Source of the DNA: Botryllus schlosseri
Lineage: Eukaryota
NCBI GenBank assembly: GCA_051294905.1
Contig: CM119371.1
Coordinates: 9,426,001-9,490,000 of the forward strand
DNA: 64,000 bases
Reading direction: 5' to 3'
Shown piece by piece: positions 2,224 through 41,960 of the stretch (positions are counted from its first letter, which is position 1; each line of letters starts with the position of its first letter). Below the pieces are notes generated by a model. The model made no database searches. It was not told the origin of the DNA and saw only the letters and a program-made list of their open reading frames with translations. The position numbers were made by a program, and so were the translations under genes.

Positions 2224-2232
2224 GTTCTAGAC

Positions 2233-2250
2233 CTATTTTTTGTTAGTGTA
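2233..2250 (-). promoter_or_regulatory. Splice acceptor just upstream of the FBXL18-like ATG (5' UTR intron or trans-splice site)
   Basis: Minus strand reads TACACTAACAAAAAATAG|GTCTAGAACATG: CTAAC branch-point motif and an AG 9 nt before the start codon. Confidence 0.5.
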
Positions 2251-4714: not shown

Positions 4715-4789
4715 TACTACAGACATTTGAATCGCAAGGCTCAAAAAACATTTTCAAGAATTAATTAAATTCTTGAAAATACTCTATAA

Positions 4790-7214
4790 CAGTGGTTCTC
4801 AACCGCCGGTCCGCGGACCGGTGCCGGTCTGCGACGACATTCCTGCCGGTTCGCCAGGTAAATTACAGTTTTATACCTTAATTTCTAGATGCAATGTTGG
4901 AGGCTTGTCCATTGATCAAATAAAAAAATGTCAAATTTTGAACTGATTCAGAACTTCGTGAGGTAACATTAGGGCTGGCAACATGTTCGACTTGACTTGA
5001 AGTTCAAGACGCGTCATTTCACGATACGCGAGCGACAAGTACAAAACAGAGACCAGCTGACTCATCGCTAAACAGCGCAGTTTGCTCGATCATTCGTTTT
5101 CGATTCATTCGTTTGTGCAGAACCCTAACTGGGGTACCCCAAACCTTCCGAGCTTAAAAAGGCGCAAAATCATTTTGAAAATGAACATAAATCATAGCGT
5201 ATTTTTTTTTTACTTTTCCAACATTTTTTAAATTATTTTCGGGCTTTGCGCGACTTAGTAATACTATATGTCTTGGTGCCCGTCTCCAAGAAATAGGCTA
5301 CGCATGATTAATGTGAATAGGCATTTCGGTGTCAGGCATTACCACGCCACGTCTTACCAACATATAATGAAGTTTAGGCTAACATGGGACTCAGAATGGT
5401 GTGCCAAAATTCGGTAGCGAGAAAACCGATTCAGTCATGAATGATCGAAAATTTTCGCTATTGCTGCGATTAAGCTACATAAACTCTCTGCCTTCACCAG
5501 TGGTTCTTAACCTTTTTTTCTCCAGCGCCCCCTTCCAAAAACTGTCTGGGTCTGGGCGCCCCCTATTTTAAATACCGTACTAAAAAACAATGGAAGTGGT
5601 CGAAGTCCGGTAGGTCTTTTCGGGTTTGGACTTTACTATTTGAAATATTTCGCGGTTGAATCGCGCCTGAGGACCAATCGAGTAATTAACGAACTTGTAT
5701 ATGTGCTATATTCGGGATCAAATCAAAGTTGTTATTCATAACGACATTCGGGTAGGTCTACCGGTTCATACCATCTGGTTCGAGCCCGATCTACACATCC
5801 CAATTTCACTTCTGCGATTGGCACTATACGGGAAGTTGATTGTATTGGTTTTTATTTCATTGTTTTGTGTTACTAGCAAATCAACTGAGAATGTGACGCT
5901 TTTCTCACATTGAATTAGTACTTCACCCAGCTCTTAGCTTCAAGATGAATGTATTCCAAACAAAGTTAACCATATCATATAACGCTCATGCGCGTTGTGG
6001 GTGACAAAACTAAACAGTAGTATCATTTATGATACGATGAAAAAAAATATATTTCCGAAATAACTTTGTAGCTCTTAAATACAATTATATTTCGATAATC
6101 ATTTTGGCCGGAAAGCTCCAAATCATCTTTAATGTACAAAGGGCATCACTCTCAAAAGTAGTAGCGTACAGCAGTGCCATCTGAACTGTTTCGACACAAT
6201 ATGCGCTGCAGGATACAATAAGTAAAGTTCGAAACATTTTATGGGAAATATATCGAGCTAGCGTGACGGGAGTGTTTTAACGGAGAATTGGATATTCAAA
6301 AGTACTCGCAATTTATTTTACACGAATTATACTAAACCAGTGCATGGAACCAGCGTAAGTCATTGTAATTTGTAATGAGACCTCAGGGATATATAGGACT
6401 CTTGTTCTACTATATAATCATATGCCCCTACTACACGATCTACTGCGACGCCTTTTTTCGTCAGCGCCGCCGTACCGCCCCCTGAGCCCAGCGCTCCCAT
6501 GTCACCCCCGTGGCGTTTCCGCTCCCTTTAAAATCCAAATAGCCCCTGGGGCGCTGGAGATAAGGTTAAGAACCACTGGCTTTCACAGAGTAGAATGAAT
6601 GCATGCTCACAAGTACAGGTTAAAATATCCACACAACTGTGGGGTTCGGGGGCGGATCTCCAGGTAGTTTGGCTTATCGCACTGTGGGGATCAAGACCAA
6701 CGTTGTTTGAGGTGGGATGATGATGAGATTTTTGGGCCCGGATTTGCGGATCACCAAGATAGCTGTTGTAAGGTGTATTCGTGCGGCGCGTTGTATTCGT
6801 AGTTTCCAGAGTAGTAGCGTCTGGTGGTTGTGGGTAATGAGTAAGGTATCACGGTAAGGTGCTTGGTTCGACTCCGAAACGCTTCTTCTATCGATATTGT
6901 CAGACAGAAGAATGTTATTCCAGTTGGCGTGGTCGGTTAAATCCATGGCCGTCGGCGCGAAAGACCGTAAACGACTCTGGGCATTAGCATGTTTATTTGC
7001 GGACAAGGCAATTTTATCTCGATTCAGCAGACTCAGTACCATAAAATCACATGGATACTATCATGAAGATAATTAAAATTACGATCAAACCCTCTAAATG
7101 CCACTCTCTAGCACCATATAGTTGACAATAATAGTTGCGTACTTAACATTTTGGCTGCATTTCAATTTTTGAAAGTTCACCGGTCCGCGAGGCGATAAAG
7201 GTTGAGAACCACTG
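4790..7214. mobile_element. hAT (Buster/Charlie-type) non-autonomous element
   Basis: TIRs CAGTGGTTCTCAACC / GGTTGAGAACCACTG; perfect TSD CTCTATAA. Confidence 0.9.
5498..6578. mobile_element. hAT-type MITE nested in 4790-7214
   Basis: TIRs CAGTGGTTCTTAACC / GGTTAAGAACCACTG; TSD GCCTTCAC / GCTTTCAC. Confidence 0.85.
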
Positions 7215-8757
7215 CTCTATAATATATGTTGGTTTTCGAAATACTTTTGAGTCCCCTTCGAGCACGCTCCCCACTCTATTAAGGAGTTTGGGGTGCGGCA
7301 GGTAAAGACCTGGCAATAATGCAAATCGTTGGATGCGATAAATCATCCACTATAAAGTTGGGCAATTGATATATCATGACGTAATTACCACATGACGCAT
7401 GATGTATGAAGAAAGTTGATATCTCATTGAGCCTTTTCATCGCAATCCTTGAATTGTCTTCCCATATATCATTTAAGATTATAGTCCTAAGCAAAACAAA
7501 TGTAATCGTGAGTAATCGTGATTACTTTTTCAATGTAATCGTAATCGACTACTGCCTGATTTTGCTGTAATCGTAATCGTAATCGCGTGATTCCGAAGTA
7601 ATCGTAATCGCAATCGATTACATTCATAAAGTAATCACCCCATGTCTGTTCCACATTGCGAACATTTTTCATATATTGCAATTTTCCACATCAATATAAC
7701 ATCAAGTCTTTCCATTTCAAATTCAGACGCTGTCAACATGAAAAAATAAGCACTAAACGAGCATGTACTTTGTTAGAAAAAGTTTGCTCGAAATATTCAG
7801 CTTCCCGTTTGTGAATATTTATTGGCTCTTATTGCTATGAGCTTGACCCGCAATCGCACATCAAGAAGTACTAAATACACTTCATGTAGCTAGTCGGTAA
7901 ATTGTGCGTCCTTATCCAATCAATTACACTGGTAAACAAAATGAAAAATGAAAAATTTGCTAGATCATCTGAGAACCGTTTTAGGGGTTTTCGAGGTTAC
8001 TTATTACGAATATCCCATTAGTTTTGCCAGATTGGTTCTTGTTCTGAAGATATTTATACCCCTAAAAAGCCATAAATTAGTGTATTTAGCCATGAATATT
8101 TGACTTGGTAGGAAAATAAATCGTAGTTTTTCCTAATTTTATAATGCGCATATATAGATAATTGACTATGATGAACATTCATGTTGTTCTCAGGTAATCT
8201 ATCAATATTAGCATGACCTGATGCGAAATATTTGCTTGTCAAAAAAGCTGTTTGTCGAACCCAACGATTATACTTTTGCACAACGGAAATACACATTCCC
8301 CTGTATCAATTGGTCATCCTATCAAGATTAAAGCGAAGTATAAAGCTATAAAATTTGTCCTTGAAAGGCTTAACTACAATACTCATATGTGTCTCGATTC
8401 GTTTGACTGGTAAATGGATATTTCTCGCTGAGTCTACAGAGTGGGTATACCTAGTATCCCTTTCAAACGAGAAGCTTAAATCTGGTATCTTTGATAGATT
8501 TCAGATTCCAATACGGATAAAAGATTCCAATTTCATGTTAGGAAGGAGTTCACTGCATGGAGTTTCTCCTAAGATATAGCAAATAAAACTTTTTAGACGA
8601 TCACAAAGCACACAACTACAAACAGCCAAGCCGCAAATTCGTATCTGCATATGGAAAACTTGGAACAAACACAGGCATAAAAGTTCACTTCCTGTTCAGT
8701 CATATTGATATATTTACTGAGCATCGTCTTGACTAGCAAGGGTAGAGGTTCCATGTA

Positions 8758-9650
8758 AGTAGTATAGGAGATCGCTAGTGGTGTGACATTGTGGCTAATG
8801 GGTGCGGCGGTGATTCGTAGTGGAAACTCATGGTGGTGGAGTCGTACTTTCAGACCGCCCTCTCGGCGGTGATTCGTAATGGTTTCTTATGGGCGCGTTG
8901 GTGTGTCGTACTTTCAGCTATAGGCTGCGGCGGTGCGTCGTATTGAAAACTCGTGTTGGTGAGTCGTACTTTGAGGTGTAGGCTGCATTGGTGTGTCGTA
9001 TTGAAAAACGAGACTCTTTGTGAGTCGTACTTTCGGGTATAGGCTGTGGTGATGAGGTGGAGATGAATATCAAGTATATGGATCACGTGATTGATCCTTA
9101 CTTAATGTGTACATCACTGATTATTACATATGACCGATTCGAGGTAATCCTAACGTTTACGGCGAGTGTAACACCAATTTATCCTTATTCTTATGGACGC
9201 GGCGACTTGTCGTATTTTCAGCAAAAAGGTGTGAAATAGTTCGATAAATCTAAGAATTACTCGCATGGTAATATTTTGGTAATTAATTGGTCACAGAGCC
9301 GGCGTAGACGGCGATTCCAATACCAACAAACAATAACCGCGCACGGAAACTAACACTTCAAAACGGTGTGAAATAATTGTAAGATGCTACGATCGCTCGC
9401 AAGATAACACCTTAGACATAACCACCTCTCGTGACTTTTTTTTACATGTATATGTACACGTATGTATGTCGCAGAACTGGATTTCACTGGTAAGATTTAA
9501 TAAGTAACGAATAACAGAACCGTCGCAGACGCTCATTCGAATACTGACAAATTATCACTTATTTCTGCTCTAACCCTAATCCTTTGCGATGTTAGCGCTT
9601 ATTCAAAAAGATGTGAAATAATTGACTTTAATACGTCTGCGATATACTTG
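8758..9650 (+). mobile_element. Diverged, truncated Polinton/Maverick-family terminus related to 41928-56155 (right boundary approximate)
   Basis: Starts AGTAGTATAGGAGATCGCTAGTGGTGTGACATT versus AGTAGTATAGTAGATCTCTCGTGATGCGCCATT; shares GTCGTACTTTCGGGTATAGG-type repeats; 9265-9425 matches 42815-43015. Confidence 0.75.
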
Positions 9651-11278
9651 AATACATCGATCGTGATTGTGTTTATTAGATTCACGAATTGAGACGATGA
9701 TAATACTGTTTCTAAAATGTTTGCTTTACAACTCTTTCGGAAGTTCGTTACAACTCATTCGTAATGAATTTCTGAATACAAATACTAAAAACACAAGTTG
9801 AAGACGGATGATTTGTTTTTAATAAACTAAAAAAGTACTTTCGTTTTCGTATTGGACTTGCGTTCTGATATTGATAGATGTGTTGAGTAATATGCCCAGT
9901 TTATAAAAATCTCGGTAATGTTTTTGGTACCTTAAGTTGGGCGATCAATTATAACCCCAGGAATATATGGTTGCATCACCAATAGGAGTGGTTTTGGGAG
10001 CCTCTTTGGGCGGTAAATACAAGTTGTGAAGGGTGGCTTTCTCCCTGGTACCCGACTTTTCTAATATCGGTCACTCAATCACTACAAGCTATATACGATA
10101 CACAAACACAGTCTTTCCTTGGCTGACTGAGCCAGGTATTATCACACGATTCATGAGCAAGAATTATCTATTTGTTTGCATTGGTTAGGAACTCAATTAA
10201 AAATTGGAAGTATTATTGTTATCAAAAGTCCTTCAGCGTTTGTTCTCAAGTCGTACCATGTGCGAAACTGTTTTAAAGTCCACGAATGAATCTTTTAAGA
10301 ATATTGATACTTGATTATAATAATATTATTCGTCACTCTTCTTTCAGCCCCGTGATCAGATTTGCCGGTATCATGTCATGCAGAAATGCCGGTTAATAAT
10401 GGCTCCGCACATGCCGGAAGACTAAAATGTGGCCACCAATTTTGGCTCAATTATAAACATTAGATGTAAAGCTATAGGAATTCGATCATTTTGAAATTAT
10501 TCATATTTATTCAAAATATTTTTTTTTCAAATCTTACTGTCTACTTCATGAAAATGTTTTGAGTTGTCTGCAAAAACTATCCAAACTAATTTAACGCGAT
10601 TCCAATCCGTAGAAACAAAGTTATTTGCGTTTTTCATAAATAATTCTGAGATTACCCACCTTCAACGTTATTCTTGCAAATCCAAAATTTTCAACTGCAA
10701 TAACTTCGCTTCTACAAGCTGGAAGTGAACAAAAATTGTTGTAATCGTTATATTTAGACACTTTTTAAAAAATTTATATTAAATTCGAAATTTTTAAACT
10801 CCAAAAGCATTCCATGTGCCATAGTTGGAATTGAGCCAATTTTATAGTGCAACATTTTCAATTCCACCCAACATTTTTATGTAATAGCCGCAAATAGTTA
10901 AAAAAAATTATATCAGAACAAGCCTACCCAACGGCCTCAGGGCGATAATGGGAATATAATTTTTTCACAATTGCGAAAATGGTTAGAATCATCTTTGTAT
11001 AAGCTTAAAAAATTTTTCGCGCTGCGAGCGTTTCAATGCGACTTGGTTTTTCGATTTTGATATAGTATAGCGCCCTTTGCAATCGGAGCCCCACAGTACA
11101 GATGCGAACATCACAGGAAAATGATGCTCACCATATAAAGATACCAACTCGGAATCGTATGCTCCTCACGAAAGAAATTTGTTTCTGGTACGTTTTAGTG
11201 TTTCCAATATCTTTCCACTATACCGACAATCCTGATGGGAAATCAATAAATAACAGCATGCGACTAAGTGACTAATAA

Positions 11279-11622
11279 TAGGCTTACCATGCGTCCTCTT
11301 TTAAGAGGATTTGTCCTCTTTTTTGACTTTTTTGAAAGTGTCCTCGGAGGACGCCCTTTTGTCCTCTTTTTTGAGATTTTGTCCTCTTTTTTGAAAATTT
11401 AGGTCAGATTTAGAGCAAATTGCGAGTGATATGCCGCAAATTAGCACAGAAGTGACGCTGCGGCGGATATTTCGGAGTGCAAAACGGTGAAAATTTAGCT
11501 CTGCGCGAAAAGATGACCTTAGGAGAAATTCACCGGTTTTTGAGAATTCTACTCCGGTTTTGCATCTTGCAAATTTCTGAAAAAGTGTCCTCTTTTTACA
11601 TTTTCAAAATATGGTAAGCCTA
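11279..11622. mobile_element. hAT-type MITE with TGTCCTC subterminal repeats
   Basis: TIRs TAGGCTTACCAT / ATGGTAAGCCTA; perfect TSD ACTAATAA. Confidence 0.88.
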
Positions 11623-12869
11623 ACTAATAACAATTGGGCCACTCAAAGATGTACCATGATTTATAACTTCAACAGTCAACGCAACGACTTGTACTCGAAT
11701 TCAAGTCATAATACCACGACTTGGACTCGAATCTCTGCACTCTGACTTGAACTCGGACTTGACTCGGTGGAGACTTGAAAATGACACGACTTGACTCCGG
11801 TCAAAACCATAAAAGTGAGATTTGACTTGTGACTCCGAGACTTGTGACATGGTTACAACCCTGACATAGATATTTGGCGTCCAGCTAGCTCATTACGACT
11901 ATAAACCGGAATTCGGCCGTAGGTTACATTAGTAATAGTAGTGCGGCCGTGAATAGCCACCCCTGCCCTTCAAGGTTACTATTGTGTGGGTTTCCAGATA
12001 TATCATAATAGTTTCATTTCGTTGCTGTTAGCCTGGTTCGTCATATGGCATTCACGGGCATGTTCAATATAATCAAAACTGCGTCAAAACGACCGAACTC
12101 TGTCGATATTTCGAATTCACCTCACCGCATTTATTGACCTTCACTGACTCATGAGTTCGCTTGAAGTAATATTGATTTAGCAATATGAATATATGTCTCC
12201 TGAAATAATGAGGCAAACAACACTAAAGCTTCTTGCCAACTTCATAATGTCGCATTTAGCTCTTGAGCCCACATCAATATGCGCTTGATGCCCACTAATA
12301 GGCTATGGTCCAACGGTGGAAAAACCCTGTTCAGAGTTAGAATCTAACTAGACTCTAGTGTAGGCTCTCTAATGGAAGCTACTCCTAATTGACCTGCTTT
12401 CTGCACGCTCACCTAACTGGGTGGTCTAGCTCCAGCATAAAATTGATGCGACCGAACTGGAAAGCAATCAATCGATACTCCACTAGAATGACTGATTTCG
12501 CTGCGCAACAGCTTGTGGAGATCAATTCGTCAATAAACGTGAGAGGTAATGAACGAGCAATGGCGAGGTCAACTGTCTTTTATGCTCTATGTTTTTGTAC
12601 TAATCCTATTGTGAAATGAGATCGGAACGATAGATATAGGCTTAGGCATATGGGATGCAATCGCCTTGGGGGCACTATGGAACAGTCTTATTGATCAAGT
12701 TCGAAGGATAGGGAAAAGGGCCGTTTATTGTCTTATGCAGCATTGCGGTGCTTTGGAGACGGAGATGTTCTACTACGTTACGTTACGCACAGGAATATCT
12801 AGAACTAAGGTTCAAGCTCTAGACATTCATGCTTGGTATCACCAGTGGCTTGGCAAATGATTATTATCA

Positions 12870-13110
12870 GTTTTTGTTTGTTTGTTTGATATTCATGTAG
12901 TTTTGAGTACATTGGTCATTTTGCACCAGGCCGATATTCTTTATTTTTGATTCCGCATTAACCGACTTGTAGCGCGGCCCACTTCCAGTCTTTTATAAGA
13001 CACCGCTTGCGCGGATCACGTGGCCAGAAGGAGCCTAGATAAACCTCAATTACTTAGGTAGGAATTCTTTGAGTCGACCTAGGTCGGACTCGAACCCACA
13101 ATCCATTGGT
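12870..13110 (-). mobile_element. tRNA-derived SINE (family 1), 5'-truncated
   Basis: B-box GGTTCGAGTCC on minus; body and (CAAA)n tail match 21220-21507. Confidence 0.8.
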
Positions 13111-13125
13111 GCTATATCGATGTTG

Positions 13126-13640
13126 GTGGGCGTTATAAAATTAAATTTCCCATATATTTCTTTATCATGCCGTTGAAAATTTCAATTTGTTGTCGGAGGT
13201 TATTCTGGGCTTATCTTCCCCGGCGTCGCTGTTCTCATGGCGACAAAAAGACCCGGAAAAAGACCCGATGAAAGGGCGCACTCACATGGAATGGAAAGAG
13301 CAAGAAAGAGCCGCGGAATAGACACTAACATAACATCGAAAAAGGAACTGTGTCATCGGGCACTGGGCCGAATTGGATGCAAATTTAAGAAAACTCTACC
13401 CACAACTGGCCGTTCGGTATCCTCCTATCTGTTCATTACATCGCATTGTGTCTTATCGCATTGGATATTGTGTGTGTCTTGTTTAGATCAAAATATAATT
13501 GGACCATTATTGAATATTGTATTAATTGTTCCGAAGTATAAATCATGCACTTTTAGCGAAAACTGTGTGTATTCACACCGAAAAGGTGGTTCACGTAAAA
13601 AGATCCTCTCTCAGAGTTTTATCACAGTTGATGCTAGATG
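13126..13640. repeat. Dispersed repeat family, also at about 39480-40980 (split) and 56370-57610 (pieces); probably a DNA transposon remnant
   Basis: Shared blocks GTGGGCGTTATAAAA, TCCTCCTATCTGTTCAT..CATCGCATT.TGTCTTATCGCATTG and GTGTGTATTCACACC. Confidence 0.6.
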
Positions 13641-13679
13641 TGGTGTCTGCGGTGGGACTTCAGTAATTTACGAAAGCTC

Positions 13680-14114
13680 ATATTATTATTATTATTGATG
13701 AAAAGATGAGTGACGCTTTTCGCCTGTGAGGCCAGGTGCGTCACGGACTAGAATGAGCTATCGATATACAAAATATGGACAAGAACCAATTTACAAGTAA
13801 GTACCACATGATATAACAAATTTCGAAACATGGGATAACATTTCGGGGATGATCAGTAGATTTTCGAGTGTTGCAGTGATTTTGAGCTCGCGCGCCCTGT
13901 CGAATAAAAAGTTCCGATGAAAATCATATCTATTGCAGTGCAGCAAAAAATGCACGACTGTTTCAGGCACTGCACAATTGTCGCATAGGTCGGTGTCGCT
14001 ACATCCAATTTTATATAAATGCCCTTTCAGGCGGCAATGGCCTGAACGAAGCCGAAATATTAATCGTTCGTAAAGCCTATGTCGATGCATCGATGGAAAG
14101 TGGCTATCAGTCAA
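13680..14114 (-). mobile_element. 3' fragment of a non-LTR retrotransposon (I-group-like ORF2 end)
   Basis: RLRSGHCRLKGHLYKIG..C..C...ETVVHFLLHC zinc knuckle followed by a (TAA)n tail. Confidence 0.8.
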
Positions 14115-14797
14115 TGATCTATGGAAATTTCGATAGTGACCTCCTCGCTCATACGAAAGCTCATATGAAAAAGATCATGTCGATGGCACATGTAAGTTCA
14201 GTCGATCTGAATACAAAAATCGAAATAATGTCGGTTTCTATGAATAATCCCACGAATATTAGCGCGGGAAACTTCCTCAGTCACAATTCTTTTCGATTCT
14301 GACTCTCTCAAAACACTCATTTAGGCCTACTTGAGTGTAGCATCCGAGAACATTTGACTTTCGTCGTTGGCTAGTTGCATATTATAGAAGTCACTTTAAA
14401 AATCCACACTACATTTTCGAAGACTCTGGGTTTCTTTAGAATTAGTCATATACATAAAGTCTTATATGAAACTGAAGAATAGGGTTTTGCGATCCTTTGA
14501 GCTTCTACAGCTACAACTGTGTTTACAGTTTGCTTCTCAAGGTTTCGTATGCAAAAGAACATCTTGGATTTGGCATACGAGCTTTTATCCGGTTAAGAAC
14601 GAGATTGGGTCTTTATTCTAAAACCCAATCTGGCGAATCATAACAAGGATAATGATCATGTAAGAAGTGAAAAGATATATTATTACGAAGACAACAGACG
14701 CAACTATCCATCAGGAATTAAATTGATTGGAGTAGCCAGACGCCAAAACCAGTAAATAATCCTCACTTCACTAAATCGACGACGAGTGGTCGTTTGT

Positions 14798-15075
14798 TGA
14801 TTGTTCATTTGTGGTATTCATGGTGTTTGTCGACTATTACGGTCATTTACACCAGGCCGATATTCTTCATTTATATTCCGTAACTGTCGTCTTGTAGCAC
14901 GGCCCACTTCTAGGCTTTTTATAAAGCACCGCTTGCACAGATGAGATGACGAGAAGGAGCCTAAATAAACCTCCAACACGTAGGTAGGAATTCTGGAGTC
15001 GACCTCGGTCGGACTCGCACCCGCAGTCCATTGGTGTTGCAGCCGTGGATTATACCACTACGCTATCTCGCCACC
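14798..15075 (-). mobile_element. tRNA-derived SINE (family 1), full length
   Basis: Head GGTGGCGAGATAGCGTAGTGG (A-box) with a degenerate B-box; flanked by AGTGGTCG(T/C)TTGT direct repeats. Confidence 0.85.
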
Positions 15076-15130
15076 TAGTGGTCGCTTGTGTCTACGAAGT
15101 CACTGAAGCTTTTCAGCAGTGTGAGTTTTC

Positions 15131-16607
15131 TAGGGTTGGTGCGAACCCCTGAAAGGTTCAGGTTCACGAACCTTTTTAAAAGGTTCTGTGTGAACGCGAA
15201 CGTAAACCTATGACGTCACGTGACGGAACATTGCTGATTCAAACCCTACATTTCAGTGAAGCGATATATTAATGTACAGTAGGGCTGTTCAAAAATAACT
15301 TTTTTTCCGGATTCCAGCCATTCACTGAATAAATTGTCAGGTTACCATAACAAAGCCTGCACACCAAATTTGGTTCAATTTTAACAAGTATAAGCGTCCG
15401 CAGAGCCAATTAAGACTTTTAATTTATTACGTTAAATTAAAAAAAAGTTTCAAATTTTTTTGTCGACCCCATGAAATTGTCGAGTTGTCTTCAAAAAGGA
15501 TGCAAAACAAAGTTGGCTCGATTCCAACCCGTACAAGCGGACTTATTTGAGTTTTTTGTTGATAATTCTCGGATTATCCTTGATCGGTGATAATCCGAGG
15601 ATTATCAACGAAAAACTCAAATAACTCCGCTTCTACTCGTTGGAATTGACTCAAATTTGTTTTGCGTCGTCTTTGAAGAGAGCTCAACAATTTCGTGGGG
15701 TTGACAGAAAAATTTGAAATTTTTTTCAAAAAATTTCTCCTAATAAATTAAAATTTTTAATTGGATCTGCGGAGTCGTATACTTGGTAGAATTGAACCAA
15801 ATTTGGTGTGCAGCGTTTTTTAGGGTAACCTGACAATTTAATCAGTGAATGGCCTGAATCCGGGGGGAAAAGTTATTTTTGAACAGCCCTAATGTACAGT
15901 CAGCCCATAAAATTAATATCTTTCTCGCTTCGCCAACAATTTCGAAGAGGACTTGCAACGGAATATTAGCTTACGCCCAAATGATCTAGGCTAGACCGGA
16001 CAATGTATTCGGCGTCTGACTGTTGCTACATTGATATTGATCAGAGTGTAAAACGGCTTTCAATTTGTACATTCTACCCGTATTGCCTCATAAACACGTT
16101 ATACAGTAGCCAACAACGCAATCGCACGGATTTGGTTTTTATGATATAATGAACATATCAAATTAAGATGGATCCTGTACGCCTGCTAGATTTTTTACAT
16201 CAGAGAACCATGTATTCTTTAAATCAATTTCTGTGATTAGTTGATGAAGCACAATTCGCTGACTACCTACATGTTATGTACATCGTTATTTGTGTTGTGT
16301 GATTACTGGTCTAGCTCACAGCAGAGACTCATTAAACAGGTATTGGTATTCACAAACGGAAAGCTGAATATTTCGAGCATACTTTTGTAACACAAAAGTA
16401 AGTACAATTCTTTTAATTGGCAAGGTACATGCTCGTTTAGTGTTGAAATTTTTATGTTGTCAGCGCCAAACAAGGAATGCAAGGAATTTCTACCAAAGAT
16501 GTTATAATACATGACAAATTGGAACAAACGAATGAGGTTCACAGTGCAGAACCTACCAAGGTTCGTTTGTGAAAGCGAACGTGAACCTCATGTTCACACC
16601 ATCCCTA
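15131..16607. mobile_element. MITE with GTGAAC/GTTCAC subterminal repeats; related pieces at about 2510-2590/7650-7870, 27030-29090 and 60300-60800
   Basis: TIRs TAGGGTTGGTGCGAAC / GTTCACACCATCCCTA; internal blocks recur at 28640-29000 and, inverted, at 60320-60790. Confidence 0.75.
15280..15891. mobile_element. Fold-back (whole-length palindromic) MITE
   Basis: TAGGGCTGTTCAAAAATAACTTTT termini; arms pair inward to about 15585; perfect TSD ATGTACAG; decayed relative at about 10500-10870. Confidence 0.9.
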
Positions 16608-17453
16608 GTGTTTGAATGCTTATGATTGAATGCTTCTGAGGCTTTACGATCACGGCATGTAAGTACGTACATTGCTTGAACCGTTCAAGTTGAAAGCCAA
16701 GCTTGCGATATGCGTATACGAAATAGTAGAGATGTTTGCATGCTCTGCATTATGAATTTTACCATTGGACTGACATGAATTTTCCTGTTAATAGCGTAAC
16801 GATTTCTTCAATCACTTTGGAAGTTTTTCTATTAAACGTAAATCTGACAGACATGTATCGAACAGAATTGGACCGTAGCTAAATACTTCGCAGAATGAGT
16901 AGTACCACGAAGACACGAGCAGCACGGTCTGATAGGAGACAATCCGTAACTAGATTGATTTTACCAGATACGGAATATCTGCAGATGGCATGCTCGAAGG
17001 TACTTGCGGTATTAGGCAGGATAAGGCTACGCTTTCCGTATAGCTGAATGTATAACTAGTAAAATCTCACTTTCATATCGCAATACCTCGGGCTCAGTAG
17101 ATCCTTAAGTATAGGCCATTGTTGTTGTCGGCGATACGCTATTTGCTAAATGGTACAAAACTTAAAAGCTGTAGGCGTCGATGCATCCTCCATCCTTTCT
17201 ATTTCAACAGCCCGACCTCGAGGCCCATACATCTTGAAAGGTTTCAACTGTTGAGCATCACAGAAATTAAAACGTAAATGACTTATTTCGGACCACGAGT
17301 GTGATTTAAGATTGGCAACACGAGCAAGTTTATTATGTTCAGTGCTGTACTTGGAAAAATGATTCGCGAGTGGGCTGGATTGATTGGTTCTTTGCATGTG
17401 TAGAAGTATTTATTTTTATGATATTTATCAATCGTATAGAAGTGCATTTAAAG

Positions 17454-18412
17454 CAGTGGCTCCCAACCTGTGGTACGCGTACCACTAGTGGTACGCGAAG
17501 GTCTTCCAGGTGGTACGCGAGTAGATTCTGTTATTTTTTCGACCGAAGGGAGTTATTAGTTAAGGTGGGGTTGAACACAACGATTATTCTCCAATAAACT
17601 TCAGGCTTAGCGTGGCCTCCTCGTACTCGACTCTAGCTTCTCACTCTATTCCCCATCTGCTAATTTCCCCTTCTACGTGGGAGTCCGAACAAGTATTTTC
17701 ATCCCTGATGACTATCAAGTCGAAAAATCAAAACCGACTTATTGCGCCCATGCATGACTTTCGATGCGCTGTGAGCCAACATATGCCACGCATCGACCAG
17801 CTAGGGCAGTGGTTCTCCTGGGGGGCGTGAAAGCATCTAAACAGGGGCGCGAAGCTGCGGCCAGCCGAAAATTTTTTCGCGTTTCGCGCGATTTACCTGA
17901 ATTTCATTGTCTTTGCTCTGTGAATAGTCATAACTGCATATTTAGGAGTTCTATTATCAACTGTCATAACCTTCCATGCAATCAAATTATTCGTTAGGAT
18001 TGCTAGCATTCTGGTTGCATTTTGTGATATAACGATAATGGGGGCGCGAAATTCTTCACTATCATAAACGGCGGCGCGTCTAAAAAAATTTGAGAACCGC
18101 TGAGCTAGTGGAAAATAAGCTAAATGCAGCCATCGCATTAAAACAATTGACGTTTGTAGTTTACTTTTAATTCAATATTATGTTGTGCTTCTTGTGACTC
18201 GTGGTGAAAAACAATTCCATGCATCCCATTAACCCTGACTGATAATGCCTAGTGTAATAGTGCTTCCTATTACGCCTCGCACACGTCAAAAACGTCATTA
18301 TGACGTCATAAACATTTTTTGACCGTCTTCAGCGTAACTTATGTGGGTGGTACGCGAGCACTGCATAAAACCTCGAAATGGTACGTGGGTGAAAAAAGGT
18401 TGGGAACCACTG
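17454..18412 (+). mobile_element. hAT Buster/Charlie deletion derivative with transposase C-terminal remnant
   Basis: TIRs CAGTGGCTCCCAACC / GGTTGGGAACCACTG; perfect TSD ATTTAAAG; STWESEQVFSSLMTIKSKNQNRL...PRIDQL...QPSH* dimerisation-domain remnant. Confidence 0.9.
17807..18102. mobile_element. hAT-type MITE nested in 17454-18412
   Basis: CAGTGGTTCTC / GAGAACCGCTG ends; TSD AGCTAGGG / AGCTAGTG. Confidence 0.8.
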
Positions 18413-18815
18413 ATTTAAAGGTAACATGGTTTCGATGCTGTCAGCATTGTGTGTCCTGGAGTTAAATCAAAAGTACAATCAGTTAATGTTAATCCATGAG
18501 CAGGTCACTGCTAACAGTTTAAAATTTTCATTAAGTTCTAGGTATCTGGACAACCGACTCTCATCCCTAATTTTGACAATCAGGACGACCCAGTTATCAA
18601 GTGACTTCGATGTTTCTGATGCGTGCACGTTATCATCGAATTCATATCTGGTTTGCTTTAGATATACAAATACGTACATAAATTATTTCCATGCCGTCGG
18701 TCATTATATCATCAAATAACAATATTGAATTTTGGCTCAGTATCCAAATTTTATATAGTGTGACCGGCGAATGGATTTAAATTTCAAATGCGGACCGCGA
18801 GCTAAAAAGTTTTCC

Positions 18816-19281
18816 CACCAACGCGGTGCCCTCGGGCTACCGGTATGTCGAGAGAACCAGATGAGTCGCCAGTGGTCGCAGTATAAATTATTCAAATAGG
18901 AGATTTGAAAGTCGAAGCGGTGAAGGGATTTATACGAGCATCAGCTGAATATGGGTCAGTCAACCCAAAGGAACATACGAACGTAGTTCCCGATCGGGGC
19001 GTTGCCCGTCTTCGCTCTCGCAGAGGCTTGACGGGAATCTAGTTAATATTACCGAGTTTCGGCGCGGAGATTGTCACTTCGGCGCGCAGTGCATCAACGA
19101 AACCGAGCCAGCCAAGTATTTTGTTCTTGATGTGGGGCGGGAATCCTGCCCAGTGCTCTGAATGTCTATAGGTGAAGAAATCCATCGCAGCGTGGATAAA
19201 CGGTGGGAGTAACTGGTTGCCTGTCGCAATAATCAGTACACAAGAAGTGGCTTTTGGTTTCAAAAAGGTTGGTGACCCCTG
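18816..19281 (+). mobile_element. TIR element filled with 28S rRNA-derived sequence, copy 2
   Basis: Begins CACCAACGCGG (eroded TIR) and ends GTTGGTGACCCCTG; internal TATTCAAA..TTTGAAAGTCGAAG..ATGGGTCAGTC and CTGCCCAGTGCTCTGAATGTC..GTGAAGAAAT..AAACGGTGGGAGTAAC resemble conserved 28S rRNA. Confidence 0.8.
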
Positions 19282-19461
19282 CTTTGGACCGTTTTTACTA
19301 ACTGTTTCTACTCGACATTATATGAAAGTAGCTATAATTGCAAGGTCCCAACGTCTTCGAAGTTGAAAGGTTTTGAGTGGCTCCTAACCGGGGTTACCAT
19401 AGATAGTCTCAGGGAGGAGGTCAAGACACGCACCCAACTCATACATATGATTGGTGATAAC

Positions 19462-20354
19462 TAGGGCAATTTTTTTTTGACATGTCAAAAAAAGTCAAAA
19501 TTAGGTCAAAATTGTAGCGTTAGGTCAAAATTTGTCAAAATTGTTTACAAAGTCAAACATTTTTTGACCTCTGCATTTCGTTTGTATCGTAGATTTTGCG
19601 CTGTCGGTAAACTTATCATTTGATATTTTACAGCTTGTAGCCTACTTTAGAGGCCTACCGTTGTAAACGTCCCATCGTCTGCTCATTGTGAATCATAAAT
19701 GGTCAAATGAAACAAATACTGACATGGTTTTATGGTCAACGTACCGCAATATCCTAGCTGAAGCAAGACTGCTTGGACATTGCATGGTTCTTATATCAAG
19801 AAGCGCAAGCTGAAAAATTGTGATATAGACAACATTGTCAGAATGAAGCAACACGGTTTGTCACAGACAACTTCGCAACGCACACAACGCACACAACTTG
19901 AGTGTTGTCAGCCAACAAATGCTGCTGTGGAACGTTCTTTTTCCGTTCTTGGCAAGCTACGTAGTAAGGACAGACACTTTCTACCCAAGAATGTAGGAAA
20001 GGATCTTTCGTTGTACTACAACAAATTTTAATTATTTCCACCAGAATACGTAATGTAACTACTGGAATTCTTCATAGCGCCAGATTTCGTTAAAATACTA
20101 GTTTTTCATGTAAAAATCTGTCAGTTTTTGAGCCAAAAACGTTTTTTTAGGTCAATCTACTTTGTGAGGACAGACAGTTCCAACCAGAAATGAAGATAAG
20201 TAGTACAATTTGAACATTATATGCGAAAACACCTAATTTGCATACGTGAGGTCAAAATTTGGTCAAATTTCAGTTTTTTTAGGTCAAAAAAGGTCAAAAT
20301 TTAGATTTTTTAGGTCAAAATCTTCCGTTTTTTGAGTCAAAAAAAATTGCCCTA
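19462..20354 (+). mobile_element. hAT non-autonomous element with GTCAAAA repeats and dimerisation-domain remnant
   Basis: TIRs TAGGGCAATTTTTT / AAAAAATTGCCCTA; perfect TSD GTGATAAC; CQPTNAAVERSFSVLGKLRSKDRHF. Confidence 0.9.
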
Positions 20355-20521
20355 GTGATAACTCGTATGTCTTGGCCACCATTCGGTGCAGGGAATTGTG
20401 CGCTATCGCATGGGAATTCTGTGGAGGTATGTTGTCCGCAGTGGCATAACCAGAGAAGGTTTGGATTCGATATCGAAACCTGAAATGCCGGATCTATCTC
20501 CAATACTTAATAGCTCATTAG

Positions 20522-21896
20522 TAGGGCGATTTTATTTACCGAAAAAACGGAAGATTTTACCCTAACCATTTGCCCTCGTGTATGTAAATTACGTGTTTTC
20601 GCACATAATGTTAGCTTTGTACTACTTATAATCATTTCTGGTTGAATCTGGCTGTACCTACGAAGTTGTTTGGCCTGAAAAAACTTTTCGACTTAGAAAT
20701 TGACAAATTTGTACATGAAAATACTTTATTTTAATGAGATCTGTACCAAGACGAATTTCAGTGGTTACATCACGCATTGTGGTTGATATCATTAAAATTT
20801 GTTGTAGTACAAATACTTTCCTACATTCTCGGGTAGAAAATGTATATCCACACTAATTAGCTTGCTAAGAAAAGAATGAAAAAAGAACGTTAAGCAGCTG
20901 CAGTTGTTGGCTGGTAACACTGAATTTGTGCGCACACTGCTGTTGACACACCGTGTTGCTTTTGGGCAGCGAGATAGCGTAGTGATATGATCCACGGCTG
21001 CGACACCAATGGGTGGCGGGTTCGAGTCCGACTGAGGTCGACTCCTGAATTCTCATACGTAAGTGTTGGAGGTTTATACAGGCTCCTCCTCGTCTACAAG
21101 TGGGCCGTGTTAGAAGCCTGCAGATATGGAATCAAAATAAAGACAATTGACCTGGTATAAATTACCATTGTAGTCGACACACAGCATGGATGGCACAAAC
21201 AACAACAGCCGTATAGTGTGGTGAGATAGCGCAATGATATATAATCCGCGGCTGCAACACCAATGGGTGCGGGTTCGAGTCCGACCGAGGTCGCCTTCAG
21301 AATTCCGATACCTAAGTGTTGGAGGTTTATCTAGGCTCCTCCTCGCCACATCATCCGCGTGAGCGGTGTCTTACAAAAAGCCTAGAGGTGCGCCGTGCTA
21401 TAAGTCGGCTGTTACGGAAAATATTGAAGAATATCGGCCTGGTGTAAATGACGATAGTAGTCGACAAACACCATGAATACCACAAAAACAAACAAACAAA
21501 CAAACAACAGCCGTGTTGCTTTATTCTGACAATGTTGTCATCATCACAATTTTTCACCAAGCGCTTCATGATAGGAGAACCAATCTCCACGCAGTCTTGC
21601 TTCAGTTAGGATATTCCGGTACGTTGAGCGTAACATTATGCCAACCTAGTTGTTTCATATGACCGTTTATGATTCGCAATGAGCAGACAATGGACCGTCT
21701 ACAGTGGTAGGCCTTATAAAGTATAGGCTACAAGATGAAACATTTCAAATGATGAGCTCACCGACAGTACAGACGATACAGACGAAATGCAGGTTAAAAA
21801 ATGTTCTGACTTTGTAAACATCTTTGACTATTTTTTGACCTAACGCTACAATTTTGACAAAATGTTGACTTGTTTGTCATGTGAAAAATCGCCCTA
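20522..21896 (-). mobile_element. Second, inverted copy of the 19462 hAT family, interrupted by a SINE pair
   Basis: TAGGGCGATTTT / AAAATCGCCCTA ends; reverse-complement similarity to 19462-20354; CTCATTAG on both flanks. Confidence 0.85.
20964..21510 (+). mobile_element. Two tandem tRNA-derived SINEs (family 1)
   Basis: Two heads with GAGATAGCG..GGTTCGAGTCCGAC, each with a CAA/CAAA tail; the pair is flanked by CCGTGTTGCTTT direct repeats. Confidence 0.85.
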
Positions 21897-22544: not shown

Positions 22545-23899
22545 CAGACTTGGACAACTAGATAATTCTAGTTTCTAATTTCACTAAATTACAGCAAAAT
22601 GCCAGTAATCTAATTTTAATCTAATTTGCGAACTGTTTCTATTCTCTAATTCTAATCTAATTTGTGAATTGTTCTTATCCTCCAATTCTAATTCTAATCT
22701 AATTTGCGAAATGTTCCTATTCTCTAATTTTAATTCTAATCTAATTAATTGTTTTCCTGAAGATGTTTCTTTGTCCGCGGCATTTTTCTGCGAGTTTACA
22801 AGAATATCCCTCTCGCGCTGGGAAATCCAGTGCCAAGCAGCTATCGCAGTCATAGTAGTTATTATGCGACGGATAATAGTCATGCTGGCATAGTAGCTTG
22901 TAGTCTGCGAACAATATTCTAGTTTCGATCACCAACAGAACAGCAGCAAAGAAAATGAGATGGGTGTTACTAGGGCAAGTTTTTGTTGCAGTTAAATCCA
23001 TGGAAAGTAGCATTTATTTTTGACAAAAGTGGTAGTAAAAAGTTGCATTCACTTTTTCACAAAATCTGCACTAAAAGACCACATTTTGCACGGTTGACTA
23101 AAAAAAAGGTAGTCTTCCCAGTTCCACTAAAAAAAAAGGTCAACCTCCCAGTTCCACTATAAAAAAAGGTCAACTTTCCGACTCAGCTCCCGAAATACCC
23201 GTAAGAGCGTTACTTCAGCGCTGATTTACGGTATTTCGGTCAAATTTGGCCCTGTATTTCACCAAAATAAAAAATACTTTCAGGAAAAATCGAAAAAGTT
23301 GCAAAATGTTGCAAAAAGTTGCATGAAAAAAATGGACAAAAGTTGCAAAAAGTTGCACCATAAGATTCCTTCAAACAGCTTAAAACAGCATTCTACATAT
23401 CTTACGAGTATTTAGGAAGCTCCCGGAAGCTGTAAAAAAGTTGCAAAAGCTGCAAAAACTTGCCCTAGTTATTACAGGCCGTTTTCTAAGCGTCTCGGTC
23501 TTTTCTGTGTATGGGCCATTGCACGTCAAGGCAATATGACCTCGCGAGCCGCGTGTTGATGAGCCCTTGTATAGTGCAAAACGAGCCAAGCTTTGTACAG
23601 ACGTTTACCATTCTTATCGTTATGGTAATGCACTGTAATTTGATATGAACTTAACTTTTTGCAGTAATTCTTTCTCATTCGCAACTTCCTCCAATTTCCA
23701 AGTTTTTTCGAATTCGGTAATTATAGTTCTAATCTAATTTGGAAAACAACTGTGCATCTCTAATTCTAATTCTAATCTAATTTGGAAAACGATGTGTATC
23801 TCTAATTCTAATTCTAATTTAATTTGAAAAATGTGTGGCTCTAATTCTAATTCTGATCTAATCCGCAAAAGCTGAAAATTTTCTAGTTGTCCAAGTCTG
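22545..23899. mobile_element. MITE with (TCTAAT)n subterminal repeats; a related end lies at 1-170
   Basis: TIRs CAGACTTGGACAACTAG / CTAGTTGTCCAAGTCTG; no clear TSD. Confidence 0.7.
22971..23467. mobile_element. MITE with AAGTTGCA repeats, nested; family also at 36671-37519 and about 32950-33395
   Basis: TIRs TAGGGCAAGTTTTTG / CAAAAACTTGCCCTA; decayed TSD GGTGTTAC / GTTATTAC. Confidence 0.75.
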
Positions 23900-24025
23900 T
23901 CGGGCGCAGGAAGTACATTTCTCGAGAAAGAAGGACAAATCCGCCTGAAGGTGGACGATGGTAACCCCAATATATTTATCTACAATATAGGTTATACACA
24001 TACGTCCAAGGATCACGTCAAAACC

Positions 24026-24233
24026 ATGGTCGGCCGTGGTTCAATGCACGTGTCACCGGACAGTGCCTGGTCGTGGGTGATTTGCTTCGGGAACTCCTTG
24101 GCGTTGTTCAGCTCGCTTGGGATTTATCGTTGCTTTGGGGTATGCTACGATTCTGTGATGTCCGAATTCGATGTGAAATACGCGCAGGTGTCACTGGTGT
24201 CAGGATTCTTCACCGGATCCATGTCGTTCGGAG
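24026..24233 (+). CDS. SLC16/monocarboxylate transporter-like MFS gene, coding exon 1
   Basis: MVGRGSMHVSPDSAWSWVICFG matches the MCT PDGGWGW motif; acceptor TAG ending at 23990; donor GTACGA at 24234 (phase 1). Confidence 0.85.
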
Positions 24234-24312
24234 GTACGAGAAAAAATATCTTCAGCGTATTTCGGATTCCGGTATTACAACCCTTTACCTACGTGAGTTC
24301 TGATTTGAACAG

Positions 24313-24453
24313 CTCTGTTTCTTATCGTTGCGAAATGGCTTGGTCTCAGAAAAGTAGGATTGGCGTCAACGTTCCATTTCAGCCTGTCTTTATTTATCGC
24401 CTCTCAAAGCACCAGTATTGAGATGTTTGTGGTATTTTGAGGAGGAGTGACTG
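24313..24453 (+). CDS. SLC16-like exon 2, with in-frame TGA at 24438-24440
   Basis: Acceptor AACAG, donor GTGAGT, phases fit exons 1 and 3; ALFLIVAKWLGLRKVGLASTFHFSLSLFIASQSTSIEMFVVF*GGVTG. Confidence 0.8.
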
Positions 24454-24504: not shown

Positions 24505-26875
24505 TGTTGTTGTTGCTGCTGTTGTTGTTGTTTATTAAACATAAATAATGGCGCTTATCACCTGACGGCCTTTTGCGCCTCGGCCAATAACATTGTACAT
24601 GAATAATGGCGGAAACGGAATAAATTGGATGCACTCAGATCATAACAGGCGGTATCACAAGAACACGAGGGTAAGGCGGTTGCAGAAGAAAACAAATCAA
24701 CTATCAGAATAGTATGATAAACTCAAGGTACAAATTGCGGTTGCACGCAGGGCTTTGGAGCCGGAGCCCCGGAGCCGTGCATTTTTACCGGAGCTGGAGC
24801 CGGAGCCGGAGCTCCATATAAAATTCAGCCGGAGCCGGAGCCGGAGCTGGAGCCAGTTATTTGAGGGGTAGCTCCGGCTCCGACTTATTTCATGAGATGC
24901 TATTATATATGCAACAACCATATCTGCCGAGTTTACCGAATTCAAAAGCAAACCTTCGCGAAATTAAGAATCGTTTCCTCTTTGGCGCTAACCATGTTCC
25001 TGGGGATTTAATAGTAGAGCAGTTAAATGTTCAATTTTCATACTTGAGTGCCGAACCTCGGTATGCGACATATGCCTGTCAATATTGTGGGTATTCGGCA
25101 TACCCGCAATTTCATCATCAGCACAACCTTGTTGGCCAATTGTATACGCTTCGAAAAGAATGATCACTATGTATTACGCGAAATAGGAGAGATGATAAAA
25201 ACGTGATTTCGTTGCTCATGTCGATATGACGAGCACGAGCCGAGAAATTCCATCTCATCGTTGCTACGAATCGGATAAGCAAATACTTGTTTTTTCGTGA
25301 TAGTTCTTTAGTAGGGCCGCGAAAGTGGACAGTGTTATTGCGAATATGCAATTATGCATGCTAATTGCAATTCATTACTGCGCATCATTGTCATTCACTC
25401 CAGTAAGGATTTTCGAACTTAAATAGGGGATGACAGAAGATTAGGCCAAAACCCCATGGTATTCTATGTTGGAGACAAATTACTGATTTGATACGCGATT
25501 TCCAATTTGTGATCATCTGTTTCGTAAACATGTAAATGTGCAATGTGCATACTGCACAGTTTAATTCGTTATTGGCATGGCGCAATGTGCATGACACAGT
25601 GTTTATTTCGATTATTCGATTCATTTCAACGGGAAAATATTATTCCGATAAACTTGATCGACACCGGATGGACTGGTAACGAGTGCACCAATATCGAACA
25701 TCAAACCATAGGCCATTTGGTTTCAAATCGAATTTCTATTGATCCCGTCGTTATATCCGAACATTTTGCGCTAACTACAGTTACAGTTGAATAATAATCG
25801 CACATTTGAAGATTGAATTGAGCTGTATGGGCTAATGGCAATGAGTACAGTGCCAGTGTTAAAATGTCGCATCAGAATTTTAATGCTGTGGCACGGAGTA
25901 AAGTGCTTTTTTAGTTTAATATAATAGACGACGATTTACTAAAAATGTGACTGGACCCTGGATCTGCCAATGCGTCGAAACTGGTATTTTAGTCCAGTCA
26001 TCAACATCCCAAGTGCCGCGGCCAGACGAATCATATTTTTGGTTGGCCTAGCGAGTTCACAATCTGAGCAATTCAATTTCGATAATATAACATGATTTCG
26101 ATAATATAATGGGAAATTAGCTCGCAGGCTACTCAAAGCCTTATCGCGGGCTACATATGGACCGCAGGCCGCGGGTTGCTCACCCCTGATATAGACAAAC
26201 ACCTTCGATAGTTTTCAGAGCCGGAGCCGGAGCTGGAGCCGGAGCAGTGGTAATAATGCTGCTCCGGAGCTGGAGCCGGAGCTGATGTATGATAGAAGAG
26301 AGCTCCGGAGCCGGAGCTGGAGCAATGCAAATTTACGGCTGCTCCGAAGCCCTGGCTGCACGATAACACAAATTCAACAACAGGAGGTGTTATTTGAGGA
26401 GTAAGCAGTTCAGTAATACAAAAATTCACTTTCAATTGCGCACATTTATCTATAAGAAATGCACGGTGAAAAGCATATTTTGGACAACATATTAAAAAGT
26501 GTTCGACGGTTTCGGAGTATCGGCAGTAACTACAACATGGAGATTCAACTATTCCAATTTTAAACAAATGGGCGTTCAATCGGCAAACAAATGGGCGTTC
26601 AATCGGCAATGTCCAGATTTCAAACGAAACATGATGCCATCTATGAGGCGGTTTCCACAAGTAGGGGAAGAATCACAAACCGAGGATTTGAAGGATTTAT
26701 ATTGACATCCTTTTTCGGATACGTGGTATTCCTGATCCCACAACGTGATGCAGTGACGACGTACGATACGGCGGGCTTCTTGTTTCGAGAGCATCGGCAA
26801 ATCCCGATAATTCGACGGGGAGTCGGAGACGGTTTTCGCTAATCTGTCCGCTTTTTCATTGCCGTGAATGCCTTT
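24505..26875 (-). mobile_element. 3' part of an RNase H-bearing LINE (I-group-like), interrupted by MITE 24748-26354
   Basis: GIHGNEKADRLAK RNase H end; FRLKSGHCRLNAHL..C..C..ETVEHFLIC knuckle; 23-nt tandem duplication near 26562-26607; (CAA)n tail at about 24505-24530. Confidence 0.85.
24748..26354. mobile_element. hAT-type MITE with GGAGCC repeats
   Basis: CAGGGCTTTGGAGC / GCTCCGAAGCCCTG ends; TSD GTTGCACG / GCTGCACG. Confidence 0.85.
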
Positions 26876-27775
26876 ATAGAGATTAGTCCTTGGTGGATTT
26901 GATTGAATATTTCAAAATTCAAGCTCACGTGAAGTCTTAAAATAACAGTGGACGTGGACATGCCTTAGAAATCACCACGTCTGTCTTCTATCTTTTGCGG
27001 TTTTCAGGGATTGTGGAACTCCTGAGTGGTTCAGGTTCGTGTGAACATAAAACGTTAACCTATGACGTCACTATACGTCATATTGGTAATTCCAATCCAA
27101 CATTTCAGTAAAGTGACATATATTTTGTACACGATTCCAAGCGATGATTCAGGCCACATGCTGATACATACACACTACACAAGCATACATCGGTACATGA
27201 TGACTTTTTAAACGTCACCAAATGTATCGACTGGATCAATCAAATGCTAATTCCATAAAATCTAATTTTCAGTGGTTTTCCAGCAATTTCGACGATGACT
27301 CGCAAGAAAATGCAAGCTTATACGCCTCAACGGCAGGACCGTCACTGCCGCACCGCAAACCCCCCTATTGGGTGGGACAAGCTCGAACGCGACCCAAAAT
27401 TATCTCGTGAATGAAAATAAATTAGAGAGCTTTTTTTGAAAATTTGTACAACTTTTTTAAAAACATTTTCGCGATTTAGTTTCAAAGGATTTGTAGAAAT
27501 AGGCATTTCCGAGCCGAGCCGCACCAAGACATTTAACGATTAGGAAAATATGGGGCGCCGGGAAGAGTGCCAAAACGTTCTGCAGTGAGGATACGTTTGC
27601 AGTAAAGGACTGCCCTTTATGTTAATCGAAAACGTCGATATATACATGTCTACTTGTCCATTGGCGCCTAAATGGATGGAGCCGAATCTTCCTGTCCTGG
27701 CAATCTTAACTCCACAGGACAAATGCCATCCACAAAGAACAATTGGAAATGAAGAAACACCAACTTGGCATCGTG

Positions 27776-41920: not shown

Positions 41921-41960
41921 GTAAGTTAGTAGTATAGTAGATCTCTCGTGATGCGCCATT

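Follow-up and report, generated by a model that had tools for sequence, protein, structure and literature searches.

Miniature hAT elements are mobilized in trans by a transposase that recognizes their ends alone, and the interior is carried along. Capture of sequence by elements with terminal inverted repeats (TIRs) is known; multicopy cases in animals are rare, and four are given in the study on Pack-TIRs (Tan et al. 2021, PMC8277862). Pack-hAT-N8_XT of Xenopus tropicalis is such a case, a non-autonomous hAT element with a few hundred bases of host sequence. According to the same study, animal TIR elements acquire host DNA when gaps are filled or forks switch, at short microhomologies that are found at the breakpoints, and amplification comes later. 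The cargo is gene or UTR sequence, target-site duplications (TSDs) are shown, and one example has three copies.

Pokey/mPok of Daphnia is a piggyBac transposon with a TTAA target, which inserts in the 28S gene and carries IGS and ITS2 spacer repeats (PMC3849761); its TTAA site appears to be the same spot as the R2 site. SINE28 of mammals is a dispersed repeat from 28S, a retroposon derived from the LSU 3' end with an A-rich tail and variable TSDs that has been re-derived from rRNA repeatedly (Longo et al. 2015, PMC4994717). In the table of rDNA-bearing transposable elements of a 2024 review, Pokey is the sole DNA transposon, with spacer DNA, and SINE28 the sole entry with 28S (PMC10946416). 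Mar of Drosophila willistoni is a Buster-group hAT MITE with a short CAGGGG TIR and nnnTAnnn-type flanks; it is non-coding, about 500-600 bp long, and was formed when its own autonomous element lost an internal part (PMC3517528). The Buster target preference is defined there as nnnTAnnn.

The element described below lies in a 64-kb window, that is, the whole stretch of Botryllus schlosseri DNA that was analysed. It has ends like those of Mar and an interior of 28S coding sequence. The reading that we prefer, with a probability of roughly 0.65, is capture of rDNA at the DNA level, followed by neutral spread as a hAT MITE.

The two copies in the window and their ends

Copy A occupies 18816-19281 on the plus strand (466 bp), and copy B occupies 3833-4714 on the minus strand. 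In a comparison of the window with itself, 18877-19237 (+) and 3833-4224 (-) were 69.6% identical over 401 columns (E 2e-49), which confirms the two diverged copies that the first-pass annotation had claimed. An nhmmer search found no third copy in the 64-kb window. No ORF of at least 110 aa lies over copy A.

The left transposon end of copy A (18816-18873, +) lacks the first 7 nt of the TIR and matches the left end of copy B; it showed no significant match to upstream 28S. The rRNA-derived interior is followed by a right subterminal region (19215-19267, +), which has no significant 28S match and is presumably derived from the transposon, and by the right TIR of 14 bp (19268-19281, +) with the flank CTTTGGAC. 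Copy A therefore has an intact right TIR and the inner 7 of 14 nt of the left one. It begins with base 8 of the TIR, where a 4-nt CACC overlap (18816-18819) joins it to another hAT MITE, at the right end of the latter. The right part of this neighbour occupies 18414-18819 (+), and an intact relative of it lies at 39635-40772 with the TSD CTCTAGGC. In one public sample (X1), 23 contigs depart at 18819 carrying the neighbour family's own end; this means that the fusion of copy A with its neighbour is local. A composite in which copy A and the neighbour moved as one was considered and rejected: the plausible boundaries show no matching 8-mer, and a left end of the neighbour was not detected.

The left end of copy B (4668-4714, -) has a complete TIR (4701-4714), a subterminal region shorter than that of copy A, and the first rRNA letters. 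It is separated from the body by a 443-bp TIR element unrelated to the family (4225-4667), with the 8-bp TSD CTACAGCG on both sides (4217 and 4668), as noted in the first pass. In the body (3833-4224, -), segment 1, the same junction as in copy A and segment 2 are followed by the first part of the right subterminal region. The right end is lost, copy B terminating at 3833, about 44 nt before the position expected.

The 14-bp sequence CAGGGGTCACCAAC is present in the window at two places and no more, 4701-4714 and 19268-19281; neither an autonomous partner with these ends nor an empty parent element was seen there. It forms the left end of copy B and, inverted, the right end of copy A. A perfect 14-bp inverted pair is thus formed between the copies only, which supports the earlier assignment of hAT-type ends. 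The common TIR proposed earlier is present in both copies; a TIR pair is present in neither, since copy A has the right TIR and 7 nt of the left one, and copy B the left TIR only. The element's own TSD is unreadable in A and B: each is without one end, and no matching 8-mer was found at a plausible boundary. Among the window copies and the public-contig pieces examined, none has both TIRs and a TSD. Neither window copy is whole, and the element, which is real, is incompletely proven and in this sense partly confirmed.

The features assessed for a Buster-type hAT MITE were a TIR of 5-27 bp at both ends, an 8-bp TSD, an nnnTAnnn target, and a short, non-coding, multicopy sequence. The ends are of the CAGGGG type. 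The outer flank of copy B, CTGTAGTA, fits nnnTAnnn, and the right flank of copy A is one change off. The family is short, non-coding and multicopy, with diverse flanks. Similar ends are present in fish hAT MITEs; this was not used as evidence. The flanks of A and B have nothing in common, and they are neither TTAA nor rDNA. Identity as a hAT MITE, leaving the capture route aside, is considered highly likely, and the affiliation is probably with the Buster group. The single-strand DNA fold of copy A (z -2.1, 4 of 100 shuffles as good) was set aside as a candidate feature and attributed to TIR remnants and rRNA helices.

It should be mentioned that the window has 40% GC and is dense in short TIR elements; single-cell RNA runs exist for the eukaryote that it belongs to. 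At 17271-18819 there is a three-level nest of hAT MITEs, in which the neighbour of copy A is split by a 959-bp MITE (17454-18412, TSD ATTTAAAG) that contains another short element with an end at 18102. A 14.2-kb near-full palindrome lies at 41928-56155, with arms (41928-48588 and 49501-56155) that are 99.3% complementary, ends that begin AGTAGT, and the 6-mer TAAGTT on both sides; an assembly artefact is possible. Its AGTAGT ends and 6-bp TSD resemble Polinton/Maverick termini. A long hairpin at 15307-15863, with arms of 138 and 132 nt that are 86% complementary and sub-threshold matches to plant miRNA families, is probably a fold-back MITE. An F-box and LRR-like gene lies at 281-2226 (-) in two overlapping frames (295 and 408 aa, stop to stop); the F-box has E 6.6e-6, the LRR matches are weak, and the gene is possibly frameshifted or split by an intron. 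By eye, a frame stretch at 23876-24421 (+) resembles the first exon of an MFS (monocarboxylate-type) transporter, with no Pfam match at E 0.001, and fragments at 13791-14174 and 26151-26911 (-) resemble the C-terminal end of non-LTR retrotransposon ORF2, with no Pfam match.

Origin of the interior from 28S rRNA

In narrow cmscan searches against RF02543 (eukaryotic LSU rRNA), copy A matched with 43.5 bits (E 4e-9) from model position 1457, copy B with 32.9 bits (E 2.8e-6), and segment 2 of copy A alone (19141-19214, model 2193-2268) with 28.3 bits (E 1.5e-5), all three being below the Rfam gathering score of 50 and not listed by cmscan of the whole window. The 28S origin proposed in the first pass stands on this comparison with the LSU model. 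Low-scoring Rfam matches to sR18, DUF2693-FD, PYLIS_2, CRISPR-DR27, and NPPA-AS1 were judged to be due to chance.

The copies were also compared with 28S genes fetched from public contigs. This panel consisted of eukaryotic contaminants in bacterial genome or MAG contigs, with at least 24 loci, of which 16 were usable per segment; loci without an anchor were left out. It held no identified chordate, and the host's own 28S was outside the comparison. At least 24 bacterial genome or MAG contigs (L003-L026) were found in this way, most of which carry eukaryotic 28S as assembly contamination. Other collections gave little: there were no loci from a first metagenome pattern, and none matching A, B or 28S among the 39 loci from a second one. 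In viral contigs, two loci had the 28S motif and none had either element end, and plasmids gave no match to the search pattern.

Segment 1 of copy A (18874-19148, +; LSU model ~1457 to ~1716, with the end position taken from the alignment) has a private deletion of about 27 nt near 19110. It aligns with 28S genes over about 270 nt unbroken, and scored above the best of 30 shuffles at all 16 usable loci. The sequence GGAACATACGAACG, which had been taken for a non-rRNA linker, sits inside this unbroken alignment, so that this claim is withdrawn. Segment 2 (19149-19214, +) extends to model position 2268 by cmscan, and its BLAST identity with the fetched 28S genes was up to 84% over 69 nt. Segment 1 ends in a conserved CCCTG, and in 28S the start of segment 2 follows TTCTG. 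The two are joined on the 3-nt overlap CTG, which is common to the end of the one and the start of the other (19146-19148, +). The 28S sequence missing at this junction is 462-602 nt long, with a median of 479 nt (13 of 16 loci measurable). The same CTG junction is present in copy B, in agreement with the common internal order described earlier, and in the majority letters of the family contigs at 19141 and 19144.

Both segments keep their native order and orientation. A single 28S stretch of about 820 nt (model ~1457-2268), shortened by an internal deletion of about 480 nt, is the best reading of the interior, in preference to separate pieces with linkers. The two non-adjacent 28S segments of the first-pass annotation are both 28S, and their joining seems to reflect the ends of this single stretch. 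Foreign rDNA makes up about 340 of the roughly 500 bp of the element.

The cargo region, model 1457-2268 of 3401, is in the middle of the LSU. This position bears on the possibility that the family is a SINE28-like SINE spread by retrotransposition, with hAT-like ends by accident. In its favour, SINEs derived from 28S do exist, and copy B is truncated at one end. However, SINE28 comes from the 3' 500 nt of the LSU and has an A-rich tail and TSDs of 5-28 bp (PMC4994717), whereas the cargo here is from mid-LSU, tail-less, and placed between 14-bp sequences that form a perfect inverted pair and have Buster-like flanks. By eye, neither copy has a tail, and copy A terminates in the TIR. The SINE reading is largely refuted and is considered extremely improbable, as the first pass had also held in treating the element as other than a tailed SINE.

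The tail after 19214 was compared with the 28S sequence downstream, and 354 to 1200 of 2000 shuffles were as good; a degenerate continuation of 28S beyond the R2 site was therefore rejected. The earlier view of GTCGCAATAATCAGT as non-rRNA sequence agrees with this result. At 6 of 6 loci examined, 13 nt of 28S separate the end of the rRNA match from the GGTAGCC of the R2/Pokey hot spot, so that the cargo does end shortly before the R2 site, as had been claimed. R2 inserts at this spot, and the cargo would end about 15 nt upstream of the R2 junction. Past the cargo, the family majority reads GGTAGCC, and the same motif is found in the majority reading of the left subterminal region (18842-18848). 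For the GGTAGCC after the cargo there are three candidate origins: 28S that has lost 13 nt, a microhomology of 7 nt, or a motif of the transposon. Three of the contaminant contigs, L013 (pattern match 391-408), L004, and L006, depart from 28S right after GACTCTCTT, at the hot spot adjoining the cargo end; these departures are probably due to an R2 insertion or group I introns.

The 13-nt spacing raises another account of a hAT element, in which the cargo came by way of RNA or R2 damage, a 28S fragment near the R2 site or an rRNA retrocopy having entered a MITE. The fragment would be a ribozyme-cut co-transcript or an R2-scarred rDNA unit, reverse-transcribed or patched in. In many animals the R2 ribozyme makes its cut 9-36 nt upstream, in some at -13 (PMC3774820), and if the majority GGTAGCC is 28S with a 13-nt deletion at the site, this would also suit such a route. 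However, the R2s of sea squirts are reported, in the same source, to cut at their own 5' ends. Inspection by eye revealed neither poly(A) nor a direct repeat around the cargo, the similarity of the tail to rRNA is below significance, and the GGTAGCC in the left end might mean that this is a plain transposon motif. In addition, the coincidence was spotted after the fact. We consider this route unlikely, and DNA-level capture remains the preferred reading, although none of the observations tells a DNA template from an RNA one.

Copies A and B have 26 changes in common at conserved columns, defined by at least 85% agreement among the 16 fetched 28S genes. Eight were set aside, at edges and at the misaligned junction. 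The remaining 18, at 174 conserved rRNA columns, compare with 5.6 expected under a generous null of independent pseudogenes (P ~2e-5). This excess shows that A and B come from one master that had already decayed; some of the common changes could be features of the host lineage, as the panel was without an identified chordate. One of the 18, at 19093, reverts in the family majority, which speaks against family-wide status of this change. Copy A has 22 private changes, 15 of which fall among 40 of the 106 rows listed; at all of these 15, the letter of the family majority is that of 28S. In segment 2 of copy A, Rfam flags just two pairs as non-standard, and both coincide with common changes (19182 and 19196), which speaks against host-lineage features. 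Since such changes break conserved rRNA helices, the cargo appears to be no longer under rRNA selection.

The family in public contigs and its spread

Public contigs and reads were aligned to 18760-19420 at a likeness cut-off of 80%, which gave 883 pieces in X1 and 294 in another sample (X5). The single-haplotype depth in X1 is 44-52. The summed depth of the bins over the interior ranged from about 1,000 to 21,000 and reached 27,800 at the junction, where the majority reading follows the element and not rRNA; summed contig depth does not equal copy number, being inflated by unitig overlaps and deflated by the 80% cut-off. At single interior positions, up to 54 X1 contigs differ from copy A. 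The family has tens of copies, and plausibly hundreds; only tens are claimed.

The right boundary is sharp. The depth reaches about 95,000 in 19243-19288 and falls from about 92,000 to about 120 directly past the TIR. After 19281, 68 X1 and 14 X5 contigs diverge, with flank agreement of 0.39 and 0.42, respectively; the X1 consensus of the 68 contigs, sister families included, begins TTCTAGA. The earlier proposal that the element was amplified is in accord with this multicopy state, the sharp right end and the many different flanks. The right end is several-fold deeper than the interior, and some contigs link it to other interiors. It is probably common to a larger family, not all of the 68 contigs carrying rDNA, and this sharing fits capture by an existing element.

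On the left side, one X5 piece (record 10) covers 18817-19037 with 37 differences and has 259 other letters upstream, and another (record 9) covers 18816-18965. In 20 X1 contigs, an rRNA-type end is joined to the right end at 19231. The linkage of the left end with the cargo and that of the cargo with the right end are seen in separate contigs and in copy A; among 16 of 1220 pieces examined, none crosses the whole element. Copies are about 30% apart, and internal deletions are frequent among them.

These flanks also bear on passive spread, by which an rDNA pseudogene embedded in a MITE would have been multiplied as part of a larger repeat, or through duplications of the segmental or tandem kind. 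Such an origin would account for two copies less than 15 kb apart and for the fact that no TSD could be shown. One X5 piece (record 16) extends 17 nt into the right flank of copy A, though it is more simply an allele. Against these points, A and B have no common flanking sequence, the left flank of record 10 differs, and the depth collapses past the TIR, where the loose ends agree at only 0.39-0.42. Passive spread is thus very unlikely.

Of two RNA runs, 6% of X10 yielded 38 reads and 13% of X14 yielded 30. None of the reads was at least 95% alike to the locus. All of them pass into unlike sequence, they lie in both orientations, and a start or end common to them was not found. They look like read-through of other copies inside host transcripts.

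A role of the cargo for the element or the host, as a source of rRNA-like small RNA, a silencing shelter, or a nucleolar tether, might explain the many copies reached, and the few RNA reads of other copies would be compatible with it. However, the common changes break conserved pairs, and the distance among copies and their frequent deletions do not suggest constraint. The features of the reads also speak against a role, and the right end exceeds the cargo in abundance. We see no sign of function for the rRNA cargo, and such a role is regarded as most improbable. A combined scenario, with cargo from an R2-cut 28S molecule and rRNA mimicry that then aided a rise to hundreds of copies through a silencing shelter or nucleolar tether, is speculative and quite doubtful. 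If it were true, damage to rDNA by a retrotransposon would have seeded a DNA-transposon family, and a DNA transposon would for the first time be seen to use 28S coding sequence as a working module.

The preferred reading, DNA-level capture by an old non-autonomous hAT element with neutral spread, may be described as a series of steps. First, a short hAT derivative would have copied about 820 nt of mid-28S rDNA, a template present in abundance, into its interior when synthesis switched templates in the course of replication or of gap repair, the latter being the route proposed in the first pass. About 480 nt was lost between the two CTG motifs, before or after the capture; the resulting junction is observed, and the manner of the loss is presumptive. 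The master then gathered substitutions, as judged without the host's 28S, some of them breaking conserved rRNA helices. The multiplication that followed would have been cut and paste by a hAT transposase acting in trans. Later, copies decayed by truncation, nested insertion, and fusion. Most likely, the rRNA part was a neutral passenger and the ends did the work.

Comparison with described systems

In the literature searched, mostly non-subscription and with Repbase and Dfam outside, no precedent was found for a DNA transposon with 28S coding cargo. The main text of the Pack-TIR study nowhere uses the terms rRNA or rDNA, and rRNA, 28S, and LSU are absent from 12 supplementary files (file 7 outside the search) (PMC8277862). 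A family in which tens to hundreds of loci carry 28S coding sequence would be an added route by which rDNA-like pieces are scattered through a genome. Pieces of this kind can be mistaken for pseudogenes of rRNA, mislead FISH or copy-number analysis by false rDNA signals, or be masked as rRNA.

SINE28 is likewise a dispersed repeat from 28S. The present family differs from it in a mid-LSU origin, TIR ends, the absence of a tail, and a single decayed master, where SINE28 has a 3' origin, a tail, and repeated derivation from rRNA. Pokey/mPok is also a DNA transposon with rDNA-derived sequence, and the cargo here ends by what seems to be the same 28S hot spot. However, the element described here has a hAT-like character, neither of its two copies is situated in rDNA, and its cargo is 28S coding sequence in place of spacer repeats; the piggyBac features of Pokey were not found.

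With Mar, the family shares the short CAGGGG-type TIR, the non-coding character, the size, and the nnnTAnnn-type flanks. The two differ in origin, Mar being formed from its own autonomous element and the present one containing foreign rDNA over most of its length. The closest resemblance is to the multicopy Pack-TIRs of animals. Both are non-autonomous hAT elements with a few hundred bases copied from a host locus other than a transposable element, as the LSU matches indicate here (the host's own 28S being unseen), and both were later amplified. Short microhomology, which the Pack-TIRs have at their breakpoints, is seen here at the internal deletion (the 3-nt CTG). In the Pack-TIR cases, TSDs are shown, the cargo is gene or UTR sequence, and copies are few, whereas here no TSD was seen, the cargo is 28S rRNA, and the family has at least tens of copies. 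On its sequence features, the element seems to work in a Pack-TIR-like manner on a Buster-type MITE, and membership among such elements is probable.
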